Source: an uncultured Anaerolineaceae bacterium
Lineage (GTDB): Bacteria > Chloroflexota > Anaerolineae > Anaerolineales > UBA4823
Length of the DNA: 64,000 nt
NCBI GenBank assembly: GCA_964547225.1
Contig: CAZJMV010000212.1
Location: 80,465 to 144,464, forward strand
Direction: 5' to 3'
The notes beneath the pieces were generated by a model. It was given only the letters and a program-made list of their open reading frames with translations, was not told where the DNA came from and did not search any database. Below, one piece after another: positions 2 through 50,274 of this stretch. Positions within the stretch are counted from its first letter, which is position 1, and each line of letters begins with the position of its first letter. The position numbers and the translations under genes were made by a program.

Positions 2-3000
2 GATGAAGTGAAAATCGTAATCGAAAACTATCAAGAGGTCGTTTATGAAGACACCATCAGTTTATCTACATATGGTAGCTTTGATGGAAAATATATCTTA
101 GATACAGAAACAACGTTGGGCTATTACACTTTATATGTTTATCCACCAGAATCCGATGAATTAATTGGATCAATCAGTTTTAATGTCGCTGAGTATAGAA
201 AACCTGAATTCCAAGTACATGTGGATGCAAAACCAAACAACTTGCTCAAAGGGGAAGAATTCATAGCCGAAGTGCAAGCTGATTATTATTCTGGAGGTGG
301 TGTTTCAGATGCAACCGTTGAGTGGTCACTGGAATCCAATCCATTTACCTTTACAGCTCCCGACGAGTTCTCTAATTACAATTTCTCGGATTATGAGGCA
401 GACCTTTATCAATACGAAGAGGACAACGAATATAGCAGCAAGATCATCGCAGAGGGTCAAGGAACAACAGATGCCAATGGAAAATTTTTAGAGAATCTAT
501 TGATTGATCTAAGTGAGTATAAATCAAGTCGCCAACTTGTCTTTGAAGCTTCAATTACTGATATTTCAAAAAATACAGTCAGTGGGCGAACAGAAATCAT
601 TGCTCACCAAAGCTCTGTCTACCCTGGCATTCGTCCCCAAAATTATATTGGGGAACAAGACGAGGAACAGACCTTTGAAATCGTTACCTTAGATTGGAAT
701 GGAGAACCAATCAGTAACCAAATAGTTGATGTTGATATCGTCGAGAGACGCTGGTACAGCGTTCAAGAGCAAGATGCTACTGGAAAAGTTACCTGGACTT
801 CCAGTGTAGAGGAAATCCCAGTGATCGAATTCGAGGATCTTCAAACTAACTCGAGAGGAGAAACTGAGGTAAGCTTTACACCTGAACAAGGTGGCATCTA
901 TCGTGCCAGAGTAATCGCGCCAGACGATAAGAATAATCTAGGGAAGGCATCCGCTTTTCTTTGGGTCGCCGGAACCCACTATATTCCCTGGCGACAAACC
1001 AATGATCGCGGTTTCGATTTAGTTACCGATAAAAAGAACTACAAGCCCGGAGAGGTTGCTGAAGTATTAATCGCATCTCCTTTTCAAGGTCAAGCACAAG
1101 CATTGGTTACTGTAGAACGCGGTCGAATTCGGTATCAGGATGTTATTAAAATCACAAGCAATAGCACCATCGTTGAAGTACCGATCAGTGAAGACATGTC
1201 TCCAAACGCTTATATCTCAGTGGTTGTGATCAAAGGAGTCGATGAAACCAATCCACGCCCTAGTTTTAAAATGGGGATGGCAGAAATCGGAGTCGATCGC
1301 TTAGAACGCATCATCAATCTAGAAATTGAAGCAGATCCTCTGGAAGCGAGTCCTGGAGAACAAGTAATATTTACCGTTAAAACGAGCAACTATGAAGGTC
1401 AACCCATTCGTTCGGAGGTATCCATGAGCCTCAGTGACTTGGCAACTCTCTCCCTATTACCCCCAAACTCTCAACCTATTGATGATTTCTTCTTTAATGA
1501 GCGAGATTTAGGGGTAAGGACTTCTGTGCCAATCGCGTTAAGCATCGACGATTACAATGCAGAAATTCAAGAGAGTGAAGTGGATGGAGGCGGAATGGGT
1601 GGTGGCGGCGGCAAGGGTGGTGGTGAACTTGGTGTCATAGAAGTAAGAGAAGACTTTCCAGATACTGCTTTCTGGGATGCCTATATTGAAACTAATCAGG
1701 AAGGCGAAGCCACGGTATCGATTACCTTACCTGACAACCTGACAACCTGGCGAATGGATGCCCGTGCGATCACCAAAGAAACATTAGCCGGACAAACAAC
1801 CTTCGATATTGTTAGCTCAAAACCTTTGCTAATCCGCCCACAAACACCACGTTTCTTTGTGGTGAATGACCATGTGCGAATAGGTGCAGCTGTTCAAAAC
1901 AATACAAAACAAGACTTAGAGACACAGGTGAGTCTAGAATCCTCAGGGATCACTTTACTTGATGATCAAACACAGAATGTTACGGTACCAGCAGGTGGAC
2001 AAAAATATATTTCCTGGAACATCGCCGTTAACATGGATGCAGAACGGGTAGATTTAATCTTCCAGGTTGAAGGTGAAGAATACCAAGATGCTAGCCGCCC
2101 GCCTTTGGGCATATTGTCAGATCATGGCATTCCTGTATATCGTTATGAAGTACATGAAACCGTGGGCACCTCTGGAATGATGACAGAGGAAGGCACAACT
2201 GTTGAATCAATCAGACTCCCCGAAACAATGGAAGTGATAAGTGGCGACTTAACTTTGAGCGTTTCTCCATCGCTAGCTGCTGGAATGACCGACGGATTAG
2301 ATTATCTGGAACACTATCCTTACGAATGTGTAGAACAAACCATTTCAAGATTTCTACCAAACGTTCTGAGCTCAAAGGCGCTCAAATCTGCTGGAATAAG
2401 CAATCCAGATCTAGAAGATGCTTTGGTTGTTCAGGTAGACACAGCCCTCCAAAGAATATACAACTGGCAAAACGCCGATGGAGGCTGGGGATGGTGGAGT
2501 GGACAAGAGAGCAACCCATTCAATACCGCCTATGCCGTATTAGGCTTAGTAGAAGCCCAATTAGCTGATTATCAAGTTAATACAGCAGTCATTGAACGCG
2601 GAATAGCATATTTACAAACCCAAATAAAACCTATTGATGAACTTGCAAACCCGAGCGATTCGAATAGACAAGCTTTCCTCTTATACGTTCTGGCGCGCAG
2701 TAATGAGCCCAATAATAGCGCGACCGTTCAGCTTTATGACCAACGACAACGGATGGCAATTTATGGACGCGCTTTCCTTGCCAATACACTATATTTAATC
2801 GATCCCGAAGACTCACGTATTGATACACTACTTTCAGATTTCACCAATAAAGCAATCATCTCTGCAACTGGTAGTCATTGGGTAGAAGAGAGCCAAGACC
2901 GATGGAATTGGAATACCGATACGCGCACAACAGCAATAGTTTTGAGCGCCTTGAGTATGATCGACGCAGACAACCCACTCAATGCAAATGCTGTACGATG

Positions 3001-3787
3001 GTTGATGAGCAATCGAAGTCAAGGTCATTGGTATGGTACTCAAGAAACAGCATGGTCTTTGATGGCATTGACCAATTGGATGGTCTCTAGCGGAGAACTC
3101 GACGCGGACTATCAATATGCAGTTGCTTTGAATGGAGATCGACTTGGGGGGGGCATTGCAAATTCAGAAACCTTGCGACATTCCCTTGAGCTCAAGATTG
3201 ATATATCTGAATTGCTTCAAGATGAAATTAATCGGCTAGCTTTTGCGAGAGACGGTGGTGAAGGAAACTTATATTATACAGCATTTATGAATCTCGATTT
3301 ACCAGTCGAAGAAGTCCAAGCAATTGACCAAGGGATTGTTGTAGCACGAGATTACTATCTACTTGATGACATCGAAACTCCCGTGCAGAATGTCCAACAA
3401 GGTGAACTCGTACTTGTTCGATTAACCATCGTTGCCCCGAACACGCTTCATTATGTTGTGATCGATGACCCGCTTCCTGCTGGACTAGAAGCTGTCGATC
3501 AAAGTCTTCTCACCAGTCCTCAGAATGTGGAAATCCCACGCAACTACACGATGGAAGATGTCTTCTGGCGTGGTTGGGGGTGGTGGTATTTCACACATAC
3601 ACAAATGTATGACGAACGAGTTGTCCTTTCTAGTAATCGACTACCTGCAGGAACATATGTATACACCTATCTAGCGCGTGCGAGCAGTGTTGGAATCTTC
3701 CGAACAATCCCGACTACAGCACAGGAATTTTATTTCCCAGAAGTATATGGTCGAGTTGAAGGGACTTTATTCACAGTGACACCTTAA
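2..3787 (+). CDS. alpha-2-macroglobulin family protein, thioester-containing (5' end outside window)
   Basis: The frame is open from nt 2 to the window edge, so the GTG at 8 is probably internal. Thioester motif CxEQ is present in 'YPYECVEQTISRF'. Very long beta-rich protein (over 1250 aa visible) with a Gly-rich stretch 'GGGMGGGGGKGGG'. Convergent with a PBP1C-type gene, a known genomic partner. Confidence 0.85.
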   Translation, partial: DEVKIVIENYQEVVYEDTISLSTYGSFDGKYILDTETTLGYYTLYVYPPESDELIGSISFNVAEYRKPEFQVHVDAKPNNLLKGEEFIAEVQADYYSGGGVSDATVEWSLESNPFTFTAPDEFSNYNFSDYEADLYQYEEDNEYSSKIIAEGQGTTDANGKFLENLLIDLSEYKSSRQLVFEASITDISKNTVSGRTEIIAHQSSVYPGIRPQNYIGEQDEEQTFEIVTLDWNGEPISNQIVDVDIVERRWYSVQEQDATGKVTWTSSVEEIPVIEFEDLQTNSRGETEVSFTPEQGGIYRARVIAPDDKNNLGKASAFLWVAGTHYIPWRQTNDRGFDLVTDKKNYKPGEVAEVLIASPFQGQAQALVTVERGRIRYQDVIKITSNSTIVEVPISEDMSPNAYISVVVIKGVDETNPRPSFKMGMAEIGVDRLERIINLEIEADPLEASPGEQVIFTVKTSNYEGQPIRSEVSMSLSDLATLSLLPPNSQPIDDFFFNERDLGVRTSVPIALSIDDYNAEIQESEVDGGGMGGGGGKGGGELGVIEVREDFPDTAFWDAYIETNQEGEATVSITLPDNLTTWRMDARAITKETLAGQTTFDIVSSKPLLIRPQTPRFFVVNDHVRIGAAVQNNTKQDLETQVSLESSGITLLDDQTQNVTVPAGGQKYISWNIAVNMDAERVDLIFQVEGEEYQDASRPPLGILSDHGIPVYRYEVHETVGTSGMMTEEGTTVESIRLPETMEVISGDLTLSVSPSLAAGMTDGLDYLEHYPYECVEQTISRFLPNVLSSKALKSAGISNPDLEDALVVQVDTALQRIYNWQNADGGWGWWSGQESNPFNTAYAVLGLVEAQLADYQVNTAVIERGIAYLQTQIKPIDELANPSDSNRQAFLLYVLARSNEPNNSATVQLYDQRQRMAIYGRAFLANTLYLIDPEDSRIDTLLSDFTNKAIISATGSHWVEESQDRWNWNTDTRTTAIVLSALSMIDADNPLNANAVRWLMSNRSQGHWYGTQETAWSLMALTNWMVSSGELDADYQYAVALNGDRLGGGIANSETLRHSLELKIDISELLQDEINRLAFARDGGEGNLYYTAFMNLDLPVEEVQAIDQGIVVARDYYLLDDIETPVQNVQQGELVLVRLTIVAPNTLHYVVIDDPLPAGLEAVDQSLLTSPQNVEIPRNYTMEDVFWRGWGWWYFTHTQMYDERVVLSSNRLPAGTYVYTYLARASSVGIFRTIPTTAQEFYFPEVYGRVEGTLFTVTP

Positions 3788-23337: not shown

Positions 23338-23456
23338 TAACCTCTAACCTCAACTGAAAGAAAATCTTAAGTATCTATCCAACAGTGTAATAACACAACT
23401 TGATTATACTATGTGATCTAAGTGATCATTGTTTAGCACTTCTAATCCAATTTTTA

Positions 23457-23485
23457 TTGACCCAACGAACAATACAGAGTATTAT
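23457..23485 (+). promoter_or_regulatory. sigma-70 type promoter for rnpB
   Basis: TTGACC (23457-23462), a 17-nt spacer, then TATTAT (23480-23485). The predicted start lands at the 5' end of RNase P helix P1. Confidence 0.55.
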
Positions 23486-23489
23486 CAAG

Positions 23490-23894
23490 TTACCAGGTCG
23501 ATCGGGCGATCGCGGTACCTTTGATAGGTATCGAGGAAAGTCCGCACTCCATAGAGCATGATACCGGGTAATCCCCGGGGTGGGGTAACCTGCCGGATAG
23601 GACCACAGAAACATACCGCTGCGAAGTAATTCTCAGTAAGGGTGAAAAGGTGGTGTAAGGGACCACCGGCATGTTTAGCAATAAATATGTCAGGTAACCC
23701 CTATCAGGAGCAAGATCAAGCAGGAACAATACTTACGGGTAGGAAGTTGCTCGCTTCCAGATCTTCTGTTTCACAGAAGGGAAAGTTCCGGGTAGATCGC
23801 ATGAGTTATTTGGAGACAAATAACCTAGATAGATGATCGCCTGAATAGGTGAATTCCTATTCAACAGAATGCGGCTTATAGACCGACCTGGCTT
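23490..23894 (+). ncRNA. rnpB: RNase P RNA, bacterial type A
   Basis: Universal P4 strands 'GAGGAAAGTCCG' and 'ACAGAATGCGGCTTAT'. 'AAGGGTGAAAAGGTGGTGTAAGGGACCACC' matches the E. coli M1 P15 region. P1 pairing is ccaggtcg (23493-23500) with cgacctgg (23884-23891). Ends are approximate, within about 5 nt. Confidence 0.85.
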
Positions 23895-25188: not shown

Positions 25189-26439
25189 TTATCTTTTTTT
25201 CGTAAGTGTCTGAACATCTTGTACAGGGTACAAAAATATACCTTTTGGCTTTAATAAAAAAGTGATTTCTCTTATCAGAACCAAATTCCATTCCGAAAAT
25301 ATCGTTTCAATGATCAGCGAGATAAAGTTACTAATATTGATCGTGAATTGACTGGTATTAATATTTGAATTTCCAAAAGGAAAATAGCAAAAATCTTTTC
25401 CACCCAAAACCAAAGTGGAATCCCAGCGAAAAGGATCAAAGCGCTGAGGATCTTTCACGAACCGAGCATCACGCTGCATGAGCCAAGGACTGATCAAAAT
25501 ACGGTCTTCCTCAGAAAAATGGAAACCACCTAATTCAAATAATTGCTGAACACTTCGAGTAAGTATCCATACGGGAGGAGACAATCGAAGAGTTTCATAA
25601 ATGATAAATCGAGAAAGATTTTTGTCATTTTCCTCATGATCCCCATAATGACTGAACCATCTTCGAGAGTCCTGATTCGGAATTTGCTCTTGTAAAAGTT
25701 GATCTCTTGCTAAAAAATACAGACACCAATACAGAATATTATTCACTAATTCAAACATAAACCGATCTTCTGGAATGAACAAGTCTTTATTAAAAGACAG
25801 CAAAGAATCCTGGTTCAACAATAAAAAGATATTCTTAGATAATTCCTTACTCGTTCTATAGATATCTATTTTTTGTCTGACATTCCACCTGTTAGTAAAT
25901 TGTCTGGTGGTTTGGATGATCTCATCCTTTAACTGATCAGAGATAACAAAATGTTCAGGTTGACTATTAAGAATGATAGAAAAAAAGGTTTGTTCAACTT
26001 CAAGCGCTGCTTTGTCATATCGATTTATATTTGAGTACGCTTTCCATGAAAAACGGTCATTTTCATCAGTTAGTATCATTTGAATATAATCAGGATGATT
26101 GATCAGATAGAAAGGAGATCTCCCTAATCGAACCCGTGAGATATCACCATGTTTACGAGTTGTTCTCTCAAGATAAGCAACCGGCGCCTGATAGAAAGCA
26201 GAAAACAGGAAATCATGTACTGAGTTCGGAGCGATCATATTCATCTTATTGATAGAAATTTGAGCTATTTTCATAATTTCCATTATCCGAAAAATCCTAT
26301 AATAAATCCATTTCCATAAAATTGCTTCTAGAATAACAAAGAAAACATGTCCTGTCTGCATACGGAAGTAGGAAATTACTCCCCCTCTTTGGTAGGTATA
26401 TAGATTAAGATTAAAGGCTTCCCATATCAGGTAGATCAT
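25189..26439 (-). CDS. cytochrome P450-fold protein lacking the axial cysteine (degenerate P450)
   Basis: ExxR in 'IIYETLRLSPP', meander 'DPQRFDPFRW', then 'FPFGNSNINTSQF' in place of FxxGxRxCxG. The start is uncertain: ATG 26439 overlaps the upstream regulator by 29 nt, and alternatives lie at 26361 and 26283. Confidence 0.7.
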   Translation of the reverse strand: MIYLIWEAFNLNLYTYQRGGVISYFRMQTGHVFFVILEAILWKWIYYRIFRIMEIMKIAQISINKMNMIAPNSVHDFLFSAFYQAPVAYLERTTRKHGDISRVRLGRSPFYLINHPDYIQMILTDENDRFSWKAYSNINRYDKAALEVEQTFFSIILNSQPEHFVISDQLKDEIIQTTRQFTNRWNVRQKIDIYRTSKELSKNIFLLLNQDSLLSFNKDLFIPEDRFMFELVNNILYWCLYFLARDQLLQEQIPNQDSRRWFSHYGDHEENDKNLSRFIIYETLRLSPPVWILTRSVQQLFELGGFHFSEEDRILISPWLMQRDARFVKDPQRFDPFRWDSTLVLGGKDFCYFPFGNSNINTSQFTINISNFISLIIETIFSEWNLVLIREITFLLKPKGIFLYPVQDVQTLTKKR

Positions 26440-27109
26440 CTTGGTTGATCAACCCATATCGAACAGCGATTAATGCTGCTTGAGTTCGGTCGGAAATATT
26501 TAATTTGCTTAGGATCGCGCTTACATATCCTTTAACCGTTGCTTCAGTCAGGGAAAGAGCTTGTCCAATTTCCTTGTTGCTGAAACCACGTGCGATTAAA
26601 ATCAGCACATCCTTTTCACGGGAGGTTAGATCTTTGAATGGATCAGAAGGCAGAGGCACCCGCTCCATTAATCTACGAGCAATATCAGGATGTAGTTGTG
26701 GCTCACCTCTTACCGCGCCTCGAATCGCATTCACAAGCTCTTCACCATCCATATCTTTTAACAAATAACCACTAATTCCTGCCCGCATTGCAGAAAAGAG
26801 TTGCGAATCATCACCGAAACTGGTCAAAACCAAGATAGCAATATCAGGATTTTGATCGTGAATGATATTAGCAGCCTGTATCCCATCCAATTCAGGCATT
26901 TGTAAATCTACAAGGATCACATCAGGTTTCATTTCGCGAGCTAATTCTACTGCTTGATTTCCATTTCGAGCCTCCCCCAATAATTCCATATCTGTCTCGC
27001 TATTGATCGTCATCCGTAAACCACGCAATACCATCTCATGATCATCTGCAATCACAACACCAATCATTTTCTGCTCATTTTGTACATTACGGTTCTGTTT
27101 ATTACTCAT
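26411..27109 (-). CDS. NarL/LuxR-family response regulator
   Basis: Receiver 'IADDHEMV ... DVILVDLQMPELDG', HTH 'LTSREKDVLILIARGFSNKEIGQALSLTEATVKGYV'. Confidence 0.9.
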   Translation of the reverse strand: MSNKQNRNVQNEQKMIGVVIADDHEMVLRGLRMTINSETDMELLGEARNGNQAVELAREMKPDVILVDLQMPELDGIQAANIIHDQNPDIAILVLTSFGDDSQLFSAMRAGISGYLLKDMDGEELVNAIRGAVRGEPQLHPDIARRLMERVPLPSDPFKDLTSREKDVLILIARGFSNKEIGQALSLTEATVKGYVSAILSKLNISDRTQAALIAVRYGLINQDDLPDMGSL

Positions 27110-29270
27110 CTTGCCCTTTCCTCGATAGGGGTATTTTAATTTCGATCTTAGTACCTGAACTTGGTTTGGATAGGATCTTTATAGTACCATTCAATTCACT
27201 GATCCGCTCTCGCATCCCTTTCAACCCCAATCCTCGACTGGATACCTCTTCTGTTAAGAATCCCAATCCATCATCACTGATCAGAATTAAAAAATTATCG
27301 GTTCCTTTTATCAATCGAAGGGTTACTTGTTCTTCTCCACTATGTTTATATGCATTATGGACAGCTTCTTTCACTATATGCAAGACATGATATGCAATCC
27401 ATTGAGTTACTAATATATCTGGAGGGATCTCCGAGGCTACCTTGAAATGATAATTAATAGAATTATCGTCAAAATGATTGATCTTTCCACAGTAATCGTT
27501 CAAAATTTGGCTTAGATCACAACTATCGGCTTTGCTACCTTCTTCGAAATGCCAAGATTGTTCAGAGAAAGAAATTTGATTGAGCTGACTTACTTCTCTT
27601 AATTGAATTAATAGGTCTCGCATCTCTTTAAGGGTAATTATTGCAGCTTCTTCCAGGTCCGATAATCCTTGCATCACAGCTTGGGGGTTAATTTTGAAGA
27701 GTTTCCTTAACGCTCTTGCACTAATATTGATACTGAAAAGAGATTGAGAGATGGAGTCATGCAAATCGCGGGCAATTCTTTGTCGTTCTTCATAAACAGC
27801 TAATGATCTCTGTTTTTCTAAAACCTCTTCGGTTTTACTTAATACTCGTTGCTCTAGTTCCTTATTTAATGCTTCGAGCTCATCAATGGTTTCTGTATAG
27901 GCTAATGCTAAAGCAGCTTGCCCAACTAATCCATCGAGTTGTTCCTTTTCATCGTTCTCTAAAGAAAGTCCAATTTGGCGAGGTCCTAACCAATAGCGCC
28001 CCAAAGATCTTCCAGCAACGATTAATTGAGCATTCCAAATTGGTGACGTTTCCTGCACACCAGACACATCCGGATCTGGAGCGAGTGTCAGGGAAGCCCA
28101 TTTGATTCCCAAACGAGGTGGTAGTTCTTGAGTCAAAAGATCGATAACTTCATTCTTGCTTTTTGTTTGTTTAAGTGCCTCACGAGCTGATTGTATCTCT
28201 CGAGTAAATCTAATTTTCTCGGGATATAAAGCTTTATCGACTAATCCTTGTAAAAGTGATCGAGCTGGTTCAAATAATACCGCTGCTATGAATAAGCTAA
28301 TCACAGTCACGACTAAGCGCGCCTGCTCCCAGATATTTGCGATCAACGCTGTCAATCCAGCTGTTACCATAAAATAAAAGGTTAACAATAAAACCGACAG
28401 AATTGAATAGGCGATTCCCCTTCGCAGAGCGCGGTCAATCCCAAATAGATCATGACGCAATACAGAATAGGCAATACTAACCGGTATTAAGATCTGAGCC
28501 AATAAGACGAGATCAAATGGAATAATCTCCATCCCCAAATAAAGACCTAAAGGACGCAATAGCGCTGGAGTCTCAGCAAAAATGAAACTAAAAAATAAAA
28601 GGCGCGCCTGTTGCGCTTCTCTTAGATATAAAGGATTTGTATCACGACTAGTTTTCAATAATAAACTAGCTGCAAAAACCAATATCCCAATTATCCATAA
28701 AGATAAGACTATAAAGGAACATATTCGAAAAAAAACATTCGCTGAGAATAATAATGAGAAAAGTAATCCAAGGCTAATAAAATAGGTACAGATTAATTGA
28801 TGTCTTGATATGGAATGTCTTCGGGGAAAGCGGGAAGCTAAATGTAATGTTAACGGACCAAGCAAAATACCATTTAACAAACGAATGATCAAATAACCTG
28901 GGAAATAGAAAATAATCCTATTTTTCAGTAGATGATCAGGCAATTCGGTATTCGACATCGGTGTAACCAATATGAATGCCATCACAGTAGCCAAACAACC
29001 AGCTAGCATAGTCGTCATACTAGGTCGGATCAGCGCTGGCAATAGACCGGATGACAAAATTAAAAAAGCAACGGTTCCAGATAAAGGAGTTACCAGGATT
29101 GGTGGGCGATGCTTAGCGAAAAAACCAAAAAAAAGAAATACCAAGACCTCAATTATGAATAATAAATATAAAGGATATACCCCTAGATAATCCTTTCGTG
29201 TATTTTCTGAGACACCAAGTACTTGACGTTTAAAGAATCGCATAGCTTCCCTAGGATAAATAACTTTCAT
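27102..29270 (-). CDS. sensor histidine kinase, HisKA_3 type, with large polytopic N-terminal domain
   Basis: About 10 predicted TM helices in the first roughly 330 aa, a coiled coil, H-box 'RIARDLHDSISQSL', and ATPase motifs 'HNAYKHS', 'DDGLGF' and 'GLGLKGMRERI'. Confidence 0.85.
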   Translation of the reverse strand: MKVIYPREAMRFFKRQVLGVSENTRKDYLGVYPLYLLFIIEVLVFLFFGFFAKHRPPILVTPLSGTVAFLILSSGLLPALIRPSMTTMLAGCLATVMAFILVTPMSNTELPDHLLKNRIIFYFPGYLIIRLLNGILLGPLTLHLASRFPRRHSISRHQLICTYFISLGLLFSLLFSANVFFRICSFIVLSLWIIGILVFAASLLLKTSRDTNPLYLREAQQARLLFFSFIFAETPALLRPLGLYLGMEIIPFDLVLLAQILIPVSIAYSVLRHDLFGIDRALRRGIAYSILSVLLLTFYFMVTAGLTALIANIWEQARLVVTVISLFIAAVLFEPARSLLQGLVDKALYPEKIRFTREIQSAREALKQTKSKNEVIDLLTQELPPRLGIKWASLTLAPDPDVSGVQETSPIWNAQLIVAGRSLGRYWLGPRQIGLSLENDEKEQLDGLVGQAALALAYTETIDELEALNKELEQRVLSKTEEVLEKQRSLAVYEERQRIARDLHDSISQSLFSINISARALRKLFKINPQAVMQGLSDLEEAAIITLKEMRDLLIQLREVSQLNQISFSEQSWHFEEGSKADSCDLSQILNDYCGKINHFDDNSINYHFKVASEIPPDILVTQWIAYHVLHIVKEAVHNAYKHSGEEQVTLRLIKGTDNFLILISDDGLGFLTEEVSSRGLGLKGMRERISELNGTIKILSKPSSGTKIEIKIPLSRKGQDE

Positions 29271-32685: not shown

Positions 32686-32985
32686 TCATTCCGCCAAAGA
32701 TTGCTCCAGTTTGGATTGATGCCAAATTACTTTACCAATTACTCGAATTTCATGTTTGGCTTTCTCAGCATGCTCTTCTTTTAGAAAATCCTATCGCGTC
32801 ATGCTATTCGCGCCTTCCTTTCCATCACCTTCAAGTGTATCAATTAGATCGACCATCCTTACGACTGTTAATGTGGCAATCTGAGCGGTGATGGAGTCAT
32901 AAATACCACAAGGAACATCACAATGAGCCTTAACATCTTCGATTCCAACAGACATTTCTACTGATTTTAATATTTGATAAATCAT
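32686..32985 (-). pseudogene. sodN: nickel superoxide dismutase (sodN-like) interrupted by an in-frame TAG and lacking the C-terminal third
   Basis: Leader then Ni-hook 'HCDVPCGIYD'. TAG at 32791-32793. The same frame continues 'DFLKEEHAEKAKHEIRVIGKVIW...', resembling the NiSOD 'VIKEQRAELAKHH' helix, and ends at TGA 32686-32688. The ATG at 32985 is preceded by a ggagg SD. Confidence 0.6.
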
Positions 32986-33187
32986 CGTCCCCTCCAAGAA
33001 ATTATATCAACACAGGACACTGACAAATATGATAACGATAATACAATTCCTTGACAATAGAGTACAAAGAAACCTGTACGAACACTTATCCTTACCCTAA
33101 AAAAGAAAGTAAATCCCTTAAAAACAAAGGAAAATATGACAACCTTCCCTACTTTATTAGATCACTGTCACCTTTTTCAGGTTGCGC

Positions 33188-46537: not shown

Positions 46538-46609
46538 GCGGGTGTCGCCAAGTGGTAAGGCAGTAGCTTCCCAAGCTACTATTCGTGGGTTCGAGTCCCA
46601 TCACCCGCT
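46538..46609 (+). tRNA. tRNA-Gly (anticodon CCC)
   Basis: Cloverleaf folded by hand: acceptor GCGGGTG/CACCCGC, anticodon stem GTAGC/GCTAC with loop TTCCCAA, T-arm GTGGG-TTCGAGT-CCCAT. No encoded CCA. Confidence 0.9.
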
Positions 46610-47090
46610 CTTTATTTTTAAACTGCTAGAAATTTTTGCGGCTTTTTTTCTCCCTAAACATCAAATGTATATCAATTATTACTAATTTTGAGAATTATTA
46701 ATAACAAATATTTCTCAACTGCTTCCTAAGCTATATCGATTATGCCGCACAAGTCTATTCACCTATATCACAATTATCAATGGAAGAATAGAATTGTAGT
46801 TCCAGTGTACATTGACAGCCTAATATCAGCGATAATCTAGTAAGAATGCTAAACGATTAAGGATTTCCCTTTTCAGGTTATTCTTTATCCAATTCTTTTG
46901 TTTTTCGTTATCTAACTCTCCAAGTCCATGAAGAATATTCTGATCTGTCAAATTTTTTTCTGTGAAGATGATTAAATCTTGCAGGTATTGTCGATAATCC
47001 TTTCCGGAGCCAATTTCTACTGTAACTCTATCTGGCAGAATTCCTTCTTTTAAATCGAAGATTCAACGATAACTTGCAAAGTTTAAGAAA

Positions 47091-50127: not shown

Positions 50128-50200
50128 GCCACCGTAGCTCAGTTGGTAGAGCAGACGATTCGTAATCGTCAGGTCAAGGGTTCGAATCCCTTCGGTGGCT
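50128..50200 (+). tRNA. tRNA-Thr (anticodon CGU)
   Basis: Acceptor GCCACCG/CGGTGGC, D-arm GCTC-AGTTGGTA-GAGC, anticodon stem GACGA/TCGTC with loop TTCGTAA, T-arm AAGGG-TTCGAAT-CCCTT. Confidence 0.9.
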
Positions 50201-50274
50201 CTCACATGAGCGCAATTTTGCGCTTTTTATTTTATTCTTCACCCAAATTCTCGCCTATCCAGTATAATTCCAAT

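Follow-up and report, generated by a model that had tools for sequence, protein, structure and literature searches.

On a contig from an uncultured Anaerolineaceae bacterium (CAZJMV010000212.1, positions 80,465 to 144,464; this stretch of 64,000 nucleotides [nt] is here called the window), a run of minus-strand genes joins a two-component signaling pair to a gene for a cytochrome P450-derived protein that lacks the heme-thiolate cysteine. The first-pass annotation had placed three tightly packed open reading frames (ORFs) here, namely a sensor kinase, a NarL-type regulator and a P450-like gene, and all three were confirmed from the ORF list, as was the 8-nt overlap of regulator and kinase. The block does not, however, end in the P450-like gene as had been stated, since a lipoprotein gene with the ribosome-binding site AAGGAG begins 47 nt past its stop codon (Table 1). 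By comparison, the ribosome-binding site of the P450-like gene is weak. A generic promoter and terminator scan found no convincing terminator between regulator and P450-like gene or between P450-like and lipoprotein genes.

Table 1 Features of the two-component/P450-like locus in the window (coordinates in nt)
Feature	Coordinates	Strand	Basis or domains
Sensor histidine kinase, 722 amino acids (aa)	27102..29270	-	HisKA_3 + HATPase_c
NarL/FixJ-type response regulator, 232 aa	26411..27109	-	Receiver domain (REC) + GerE helix-turn-helix (HTH)
Conserved cis element between regulator and P450-like gene	26330..26397	-	16-locus alignment
P450-derived protein, 364 aa, without heme-thiolate ligand	25189..26283	-	Supported gene model
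Deletion junction and I-helix remnant, residues ~161-186	25726..25803	-	Alignments
K-helix ExxR (ETLR), retained	25585..25596	-	Alignments
Meander DPQRFDPFRW, retained	25423..25452	-	Alignments
Former Cys-ligand loop FPFGNSNINTSQF	25345..25383	-	FPFG kept; Arg, Cys and Gly lost
Probable lipoprotein, 379 aa	24002..25141	-	Signal peptide + lipobox

The locus was compared with about 65 related loci (labeled from L001), whose neighboring genes were classed with phmmer and MAFFT. This comparison corrected the gene model: the 416-aa form proposed first (25189-26439), with its 29-nt overlap of the regulator, is unsupported, and the supported gene encodes 364 aa and leaves a gap of 127 nt to the regulator gene without any overlap. 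In the nearest ortholog (L001), the ATG at residue 27 of the 416-aa form is replaced by ACG, and the open frame begins only past the regulator stop, so that the first, overlapping ATG has no counterpart. Both upstream ATGs of the long ORF sit upstream of or within a conserved promoter, and the recorded gene calls for the window sequence (two assemblies) and for the 67%-identical ortholog begin at the ATG at 26283. Because the upstream ATGs are not conserved and the promoter lies inside the extension, the long form and its overlap are an artefact of choosing the longest ORF. A hydrophobic N-terminal segment of the 416-aa ORF, VFFVILEAILWKWIYYRIF, was considered as a membrane anchor and rejected, as the upstream ATGs are not conserved in L001.

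The P450-like ORF matches the Pfam P450 family PF00067 with E = 1.3e-21 and 77 bits (cut-off, 22.8) and also matches solved P450s, including CYP170A1 and CYP51. All strings quoted in the first-pass annotation, IIYETLRLSPP, DPQRFDPFRW, FPFGNSNINTSQF and KDFCYFPFG, were found in the translation. In P450s, ExxR and the meander Arg form an ERR triad that stabilizes the fold. Its members here, E230, R233 and R286 (numbering of the 364-aa protein), are invariant in the aligned sequences, with E230 and R233 so in all degenerate and canonical sequences. P279, P284 and R286 are invariant in alignments A1 and A4, W287 is invariant in A4, and an 18-sequence alignment (A7) has R286 invariant and P279, F282, P284 and W287 at least 90% conserved. 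Across the degenerate forms, the motifs LxNHPDYI, ExxR, PPxW, QRDARF, DPxRW and FPFG are invariant.

Of all P450 residues, only the proximal Cys is regarded as absolutely conserved, and to our knowledge natural exceptions are rare and confined to a family of glycosyltransferase activators. In the HMMER alignment of the P450-like protein to CYP51, GKDFCYFPFGNSN sits on GEKFAYVPFGAGR; alignments to CYP51 and to the closest canonical relatives equate FPFG with the FxxG of P450s. The ligand-Cys column then falls on T310 in the ungapped alignment or, with a one-residue gap (MAFFT), on S311, and no alignment to CYP51 or to the closest canonical relatives has a Cys at the ligand position. The axial Cys of FxxGxRxCxG has been lost, as first claimed, together with the Arg and Gly of the same loop. 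The Thr that had been named at this position is there in the ungapped alignment, but it is not conserved (T, I, A/C or D/Q in orthologs) and, being variable, is not a replacement ligand. The Cys in KDFCYFPFG does not qualify as the ligand either: the canonical relatives have this Cys plus the true ligand, and the closest ortholog has Arg. Beyond FPFG, the Cys-less lineages all differ from one another (NSNINTSQ, NSNLKISQ, YSAAFACYHH and CLEQPGDQGR, with NSNLKTSQ also among the orthologs). No newly conserved Cys, His or Tyr was found; the only invariant His is that of NHPDY, which is common to canonical P450s. A Cys loop hidden in another frame was looked for and rejected, since both other frames of 25345-25400 lack C-x-G.

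Further parts of the active site are missing as well. The (A/G)GxxT motif of the I helix is indeed unrecognizable, the AGHETT of canonical relatives being aligned with FMFELV. The protein is about 80 residues short of canonical orthologs, having lost helices F, G and H and the N-terminal half of helix I, and nowhere do the window and L001 proteins differ more than at the deletion junction (45% identity). The C-helix contacts, His/Arg residues holding the heme propionates, are lost too. Judged from its sequence, the protein cannot be a canonical thiolate-heme monooxygenase and is predicted to have no thiolate-ligated heme. The suggestion of a non-catalytic P450-fold protein is supported by the loss of both the thiolate ligand and the I-helix motif.

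An AlphaFold2 (AF2) model of the 364-aa protein had a mean predicted local distance difference test score (pLDDT) of 76.8 and a predicted template-modeling score (pTM) of 0.79, with pLDDT values below 50 at the deletion junction (residues 161-168) and at the former Cys loop (residues 305-309). The 50 best Foldseek matches listed from the PDB were all P450s, headed by CYP170A1, CYP184A1 and CYP51 with query-normalized TM-scores of 0.63-0.67. The P450 fold is borne out by the PF00067 match, the model and these structural matches.

When 1.84 billion representative proteins were searched exhaustively by HMMER with the P450-like protein as query, only three others were found that align with it continuously and nearly end to end (P0002, P0009 and P0010), and each is encoded between a gene for a GerE-type regulator and a homolog of the lipoprotein gene. 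Nearly all other listed matches were P450s of ordinary length (~400-480 aa); few were shortened. A scan of GTDB genomes with N-terminal peptides of the P450-like protein only gave no match, and a lipoprotein probe retrieved two genomes, both Chloroflexota metagenome-assembled genomes (MAGs), and 54 metagenome loci. Together, these loci define a conserved Anaerolineales cassette of HisKA_3 kinase, NarL-type regulator, repeat-promoter element, P450 and lipoprotein. Orthologs at 67%, 33% and 29% identity to the P450-like protein have the same architecture and lie on contigs from three metagenome samples, one of which is also a source of the window's sequence.

The P450 slot of the cassette occurs in four states. 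The canonical state, with the gene order kept and a P450 of 437-485 aa, is found at eight loci (L006, L017, L024, L025, L027, L034, L050 and L051), whose P450s have LLAGHETTA (AGHETT), intact C-helix heme contacts and FPFGGGxRxCIGE. An example is the 469-aa P450 of L006 (Chloroflexota MAG276, JBFMFR010000056.1), which carries LAGHGTTA and FPFGGGPRVCIGE and matches the full Pfam model with E = 6e-84. In an intermediate state (L054, L011 and L057), the Cys is kept (LPFGGGARACPGEE), AGxxT and the C-helix heme contacts are lost, and the proteins of L054 and L011 are also about 50 residues shorter. The Cys-less state, seen in the window, L001/L009, L004 and L005, is marked by a common deletion of ~80 residues and by the disappearance of Arg, Cys and Gly from the Cys loop. 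Finally, in L012 and L055 the regulator and lipoprotein genes are adjacent without any P450 remnant. In a tree of the lipoprotein, canonical L006, intermediate L011, P450-less L012 and the Cys-less clade group together, which makes the states steps in a single lineage. The window gene is thus a degenerate positional ortholog of the canonical P450 that occupies the same slot. It is not the stand-alone oddity it had first appeared to be, as normal P450 orthologs fill this slot in related genomes. Nor do all homologs have a normal FxxGxRxCxG without ever being linked to two-component genes: several are Cys-less, and the linkage is conserved.

Enzymes of the CYP184A1, CYP170A1, CYP97, CYP46 and CYP102 types act mostly on lipids or terpenoids. 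The canonical ortholog is closest to CYP184A1 (7WZL, E = 5e-82) and CYP170A1 (3DBG), followed by CYP97, CYP46 and CYP102, and the deposited CYP184A1 entry includes an oleic-acid complex.

Three further loci, whose degenerate P450s also came from the search of representative proteins, bear on how often the thiolate was lost. L062 (P0018) encodes a Cys-less P450 of 337 aa beside kinase and regulator, the fetched locus ending just past the P450 gene. L063/L064 (P0058), from a MAG labeled o__Anaerolineales, has a Cys-less P450 of 340 aa, a kinase-regulator pair and a lipoprotein homolog next to it. In L065 (P0015), the Cys is displaced (loop FPFGGDRCAPIM), again beside kinase and regulator and with a lipoprotein homolog next. 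The deletion boundaries of these P450s differ from those of the window protein, and in a tree of the C-terminal half the L062 protein is sister to a Cys-containing one; these two observations therefore argue for repeated independent loss of the thiolate. Within the cassette, it was lost at least twice, probably three or four times.

Between the regulator gene and the P450-like gene of the window lies a conserved element with two direct CCyAC repeats. It is made up of an ACCTACC repeat (26391-26397), a TTCCTACT repeat (26367-26374), a -35-like CAGACA (26353-26358), a 17-nt spacer and a -10-like TATTCT (26330-26335). An ungapped alignment of the element from 16 loci has 18 invariant columns and the consensus tACCyACCAAAgnGGGG - N7 - tCCCyACc - N7 - GGCaGACa - N17 - TATcCT. 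The composite pattern occurs once in the window versus never in 100 shuffles, and it is exact in 12 loci. Between lineages, the two repeats co-vary (CCTAC/CCTAC, CCCAC/CCCCAC and CCCTCC/CCCCTCC). The conserved promoter scores 8 of 12, below the threshold of the generic scan, and was not flagged there. At loci without the P450 gene (L012, L055 and L045), the element is directly upstream of the lipoprotein gene, and it stays with the P450-lipoprotein pair despite genes inserted after the regulator in L017, L034, L054, L057 and L065. We infer that the element is the operator of the regulator together with a sigma-70-type promoter for the P450-like/lipoprotein transcript. Given a conserved promoter of its own and the repeats that precede it, the P450-like gene with its lipoprotein partner looks like a target operon of the regulator and not like the distal part of the kinase operon. 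An RNA hairpin or attenuator was considered for the element and rejected: CCTAC/GTAGG pairs exist in L006 and L012, most loci including the window have no complement, and the element is upstream of the predicted transcription start.

The distance between promoter and start codon differs among the states of the cassette. In L006 (4538-4553), L054 (1803-1821), L057 (2716-2734) and L063 (4982-5001), the ATG of the P450 gene is only 6-10 nt past the -10 box, which implies that canonical and intermediate cassettes of this kind would produce leaderless mRNAs. The Cys-less clade lacks the early ATG and starts ~40 nt further downstream. In the window the early codon reads ATT, which leaves the ATG at 26283 as the first one in frame past the predicted transcription start.

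Some related loci contain additional genes around these elements. Unrelated genes separate the regulator gene from the operator/P450 unit in L034 (2834-4926), where they are two ORFs on the minus strand (378 and 249 aa), and in L017 (1117-2870). The unit is thus only loosely tied to its place beside the regulator gene, and it is with the P450-lipoprotein pair that the operator stays. Several relatives, namely L012 (~590-910, minus strand), L054, L055, L057 and L065, carry a DUF6951 gene (E = 1e-22 to 6e-32), small and Cys-rich, on the opposite strand between the regulator gene and the conserved operator. In L012 and L055, it fills the interval of the missing P450; the window does not have it. 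In L004 (MLSed_10011775, 2815-3761), a SusD/RagB gene directly adjoins a regulator gene that is truncated at its 5' end. The SusD/RagB family is associated with Bacteroidota, and the contig is probably chimeric at ~3700.

The signaling pair itself has the sequence features of a NarL/FixJ-type two-component system. The kinase has eight predicted transmembrane (TM) helices (residues 34-335) without a large external loop, followed by a cytoplasmic linker, and Pfam places HisKA_3 at 495-560 (E = 2e-16) and HATPase_c at 629-716 (E = 1e-12). The H-box DLHDS, the N-box and the G-boxes are visible in the translation, and the sensor region matches no characterized input domain. In the regulator, Response_reg (E = 9e-27) and GerE (E = 4e-17) were found by Pfam, and its translation shows the DD of the acidic pocket, the acceptor Asp in ILVDLQMP, a Thr in VLTSF and a Lys in YLLKD. 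Its best NCBIfam matches, MadR and NarL, are both below the equivalog cut-offs, which limits the assignment to family level. Kinase orthologs were found at the same position in L001, L006, L024, L027, L034, L050, L051, L057 and L062-L065, and the proposed linkage of the P450-like gene to a kinase-regulator pair is conserved in every lineage for which upstream DNA is available.

Across the related loci compared, the most constant member of the output unit is the lipoprotein. It has a signal peptide, an invariant LAC lipobox, a net charge of -45, an all-helical composition and a Gly/Pro-rich tail. Nothing significant was found for it in Pfam or NCBIfam. Its family comprises at least 338 clusters, and the source names that give an organism are all Anaerolineales or Chloroflexota MAGs, with the annotation 'hypothetical protein'; among 120 family members listed (P0158-P0277), one carries a Pfam entry. 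Only a C-terminal four-helix domain (residues ~230-350) is confident in the AF2 model, and Foldseek found no PDB fold match at E < 0.1.

We then compared substitution rates between the window and L001 by the Nei-Gojobori method. The P450-like protein is 67% identical between the two, with a ratio of nonsynonymous to synonymous rates (dN/dS) of 0.29, and the corresponding values are 92% and 0.12 for EamA, 92% and 0.10 for FtsK, 83% and 0.25 for the kinase, 90% and 0.16 for the regulator, and 92% and 0.11 for the lipoprotein. Its dN is 0.183 versus 0.04-0.09 in the five flanking genes, and the gene evolves 4-5x faster than its neighbors. Over 364 codons there are no indels, and the 237 substitutions are distributed over the codon positions as 71/50/116. 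When the same number of substitutions was placed at random, the frame stayed open in 5e-5 of the simulations, and the predicted identity was 58% versus the 67% observed. The P450-like gene has the lowest GC content of the block, with codon positions 1 and 2 drifted toward the AT bias of the third position.

The acceleration is specific to the degenerate forms, and canonical P450s evolve at about the same rate as their neighbors. Identities of regulator, P450 and lipoprotein are 94/85/93% for the canonical pair L017-L025 and 75/59/71% for the canonical pair L050-L017, 85/51/76% for the intermediates L054-L057, and 79/34/71% for the Cys-less proteins of the window and L004. An open frame, a similar length and the same large deletion are maintained in four lineages, although protein identity between them is down to 32-37%. 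In holding on to their fold-stabilizing motifs while varying after FPFG, the degenerate forms behave as expected of a protein that still needs its fold and no longer its active site, and the AF2 model agrees with this.

Taken together, the window gene probably encodes a degenerate P450 ortholog without a heme ligand, that is, a folded, non-catalytic protein that is under relaxed purifying selection, belongs to the cassette and is probably still co-expressed with the lipoprotein. It is not a dead pseudogene because the frame is open in four lineages, dN/dS is 0.29 and the fold motifs are retained. In the system we propose, the membrane-embedded HisKA_3 kinase would phosphorylate the NarL-type regulator, which would most likely bind the two CCyAC repeats that immediately precede a weak sigma-70-type promoter, and this promoter would drive a two-gene transcript for the P450 and the acidic lipoprotein. 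In the ancestral state, which persists in related genomes, the first gene is a normal P450 of 437-485 aa from the CYP184/CYP170-like group. The lineage of the window lost the F/G/H substrate lid (~80 residues), AGxxT, the C-helix contacts to the heme propionates and, finally, Arg, Cys and Gly of the Cys loop. Counting all non-catalytic roles, the protein is likely to keep a function, and in its residual role it could serve as a scaffold, bind a ligand or pair with another protein. More tentatively, and with considerably less confidence, we suggest that the P450 body could serve the kinase-regulator pathway independently of heme, by binding lipids or other ligands or by partnering the machinery for signaling or lipoprotein export; this would explain why lid-less, Cys-less forms have stayed folded proteins after repeated losses of the thiolate.

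Several points count against this interpretation. The dS of the P450-like gene is 0.63 versus 0.30-0.42 in its neighbors, so that the dN/dS comparison is not fully like for like. Only weak purifying selection acts on the gene, which some relatives have lost altogether; the copy in the window could accordingly be a slowly decaying relic. The alignment behind the AF2 model is shallow (18 sequences, mostly canonical P450s), which biases the prediction toward the P450 fold. A correlation between recognition-helix residues of the regulator and the repeat sequence is confounded by phylogeny and was not used as evidence.

If the gene were such a relic, its function would have gone with catalysis and it would be drifting toward deletion, the frame being kept by weak indirect selection. 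An O2-dependent monooxygenase may be useless in an anoxic niche, and nonsense mutations may have polar effects on lipoprotein expression. The dN at 4-5x that of the neighbors, the drift of codon positions 1 and 2 toward the mutational bias, the poorer ribosome-binding site compared with the AAGGAG of the lipoprotein gene, the missing catalytic motifs and the traceless absence of the gene from L012 and L055 would all agree with decay. So would a nickel superoxide dismutase (NiSOD)-like gene in the window that is interrupted by a stop codon, which fits a loss of O2-related functions; that O2-dependent enzymes are dispensable in anoxic habitats is speculation as an ecological rationale. However, a dN/dS below 1, the excess of third-position changes, an identity above the neutral prediction and the absence of indels from all codons compared with L001 are at odds with drift, and selection against stop codons alone would not keep ExxR, PPxW, QRDARF, DPxRW and FPFG at 29-37% identity. 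We regard decay as rather unlikely. A heme enzyme with another proximal ligand (Ser, Thr, His or Tyr), 'P411-like' or peroxidase-like, is very improbable: S311 is common to the window and L001 and occupies the Cys column in one alignment, and in L004 a Cys lies one residue further on (FPFGYSAAFAC), but each of the four Cys-less lineages has its own sequence after FPFG, there is no newly conserved Cys, His or Tyr, the Cys-loop Arg and the C-helix His/Arg for the heme propionates are lost, and the I-helix groove and the F/G lid are gone, with a loop pLDDT below 50.

Membership in the P450-derived glycosyltransferase-activator family (EryCII, DesVIII, TylMIII and AknT) is suggested by the shared lack of the Cys and of part of the G/H helices (PMC3391682) and by a weak match to TIGR04515 (E = 1e-5). 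This match reaches 25.2 bits against a cut-off of 343, though, and that of the canonical ortholog is similarly weak, which points to generic P450 similarity. No sugar glycosyltransferase is called within ~10 kb on either side, where the called genes are ABC ATPase, Lgt, CDP-alcohol phosphatidyltransferase, ferredoxin, EamA, FtsK, kinase, regulator, lipoprotein and UvrB, and the window protein comes from a CYP184/170-like lineage with canonical positional orthologs. We give such membership hardly any credence. The chance that a sequencing, assembly or gene-calling artefact, such as a frameshift or chimera, removed the Cys loop is close to nil. The data are metagenomic, and the L004 contig looks chimeric upstream of the regulator; yet the gene is present without a single nucleotide difference on two separately assembled metagenome contigs from different samples of the Joint Genome Institute (JGI), MLSed_10000197 and ML8_10000027, both of which match 21 kb of the window with 99.9% identity. 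The architecture recurs in the orthologs at 67%, 33% and 29% identity, and the other frames across the loop offer no C-x-G. Sequencing error, which had been named as a way in which the claim might fail, is ruled out by the identical copies and by the diverged orthologs that also lack the Cys.

P450-fold proteins without a heme-ligating Cys have been described before, as have P450 genes tied to signaling operons, and where the first-pass annotation knew of no described pairing of this kind, EryCII/DesVIII (PMC3391682) as well as CYP157 with the conservons (PMC3599690) are precedents. EryCII/DesVIII-type proteins have neither the heme-ligating Cys nor heme and act as non-catalytic scaffolds, maintained by selection, that activate glycosyltransferases (PMC3391682); they miss parts of the C, G and H helices and keep the I-L helices and the C-terminal sheets (PMC3391682; complex, PDB 2YJN). 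The window protein resembles them in lacking the Cys and parts of helices. It differs in coming from another P450 lineage with an independent origin and in being part of a two-component cassette with a lipoprotein, whereas EryCII/DesVIII belong to antibiotic gene clusters; there was no evidence here for an added A''-type N-terminal helix in the window protein. With the canonical P450s of the cassette it shares the slot, the LxNHPDYI region, ExxR, the meander, FPFG and the L helix, and these differ from it in their length of 437-485 aa, intact AGHETT, C-helix heme contacts and FPFGGGxRxCIGE.

CYP157 genes lie downstream of the Streptomyces conservons (cvnA-D), which are sensor-kinase-like signaling operons (PMC3599690), and the ExxR of CYP157 has degenerated to EQSLW (PMC3599690, citing Rupasinghe et al. 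2006). The likeness is that of a P450 tied to a signaling operon in which a supposedly invariant P450 motif is degenerate; the differences are that conservons are not a classical kinase/regulator pair, have no lipoprotein partner and belong to a different phylum. In the 2006 work of Rupasinghe et al., CYP157 reportedly keeps its Cys ligand. NarL/LiaR-type systems likewise combine a HisKA_3 kinase with a REC-GerE regulator, translationally coupled, and an adjacent target promoter with short repeats by a weak -35 box. They differ from the system described here, which has an 8-TM sensor and, as outputs, a P450 and an uncharacterized lipoprotein unlike those of known regulons. NarL-family operators are typically inverted repeats, whereas the repeats in the window are direct and spaced by 24 bp. 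Our literature searches returned nothing relevant on natural heme-free P450 pseudoenzymes beyond the EryCII class or on an Anaerolineae P450 linked to a two-component system, and no description of this Anaerolineales cassette or its lipoprotein family was found. The protein is best described as a P450 on its way from enzyme to pseudoenzyme or to loss, within a conserved cassette under two-component control, and so as a new, independent case of a known phenomenon, Cys-less P450 homologs, and not as a new category.

Elsewhere in the window, the gene for a bacterial class A RNase P RNA is located at 23494-23894 on the plus strand, between uvrB and the lipoprotein gene, and matches the full-length model with 272 bits; because of this gene, the small ORFs at 23426-23836 are considered spurious. 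The NiSOD-like ORF (~32687-32997, minus strand) has the Ni-hook HCDVPCGIYD and an in-frame TAG at 32791-32793, and it ends early (~100 codons versus ~130 in Streptomyces NiSOD). It is probably a pseudogene. Genes for tRNA-Gly(CCC) (46538-46610) and tRNA-Thr(CGT) (50128-50201), both on the plus strand, are ordinary.

The practical significance of these findings is modest, as the organisms are uncultured. The previously undescribed cassette, which recurs in genomes and metagenome contigs of Anaerolineales, is nonetheless a handle on signaling in a phylum with few cultured, genetically tractable members. A single genomic slot displays a series from a canonical P450 via a motif-less, Cys-containing form and a lid-less, Cys-less form to loss of the gene, and thereby a natural time course of an enzyme becoming a pseudoenzyme or disappearing. 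The matched canonical and degenerate orthologs allow direct biochemical comparison. If the P450 body does have a heme-independent job, the proteins of this cassette would add to the EryCII/DesVIII glycosyltransferase activators a second, unrelated natural class of P450-derived pseudoenzymes, this one tied to signal transduction.

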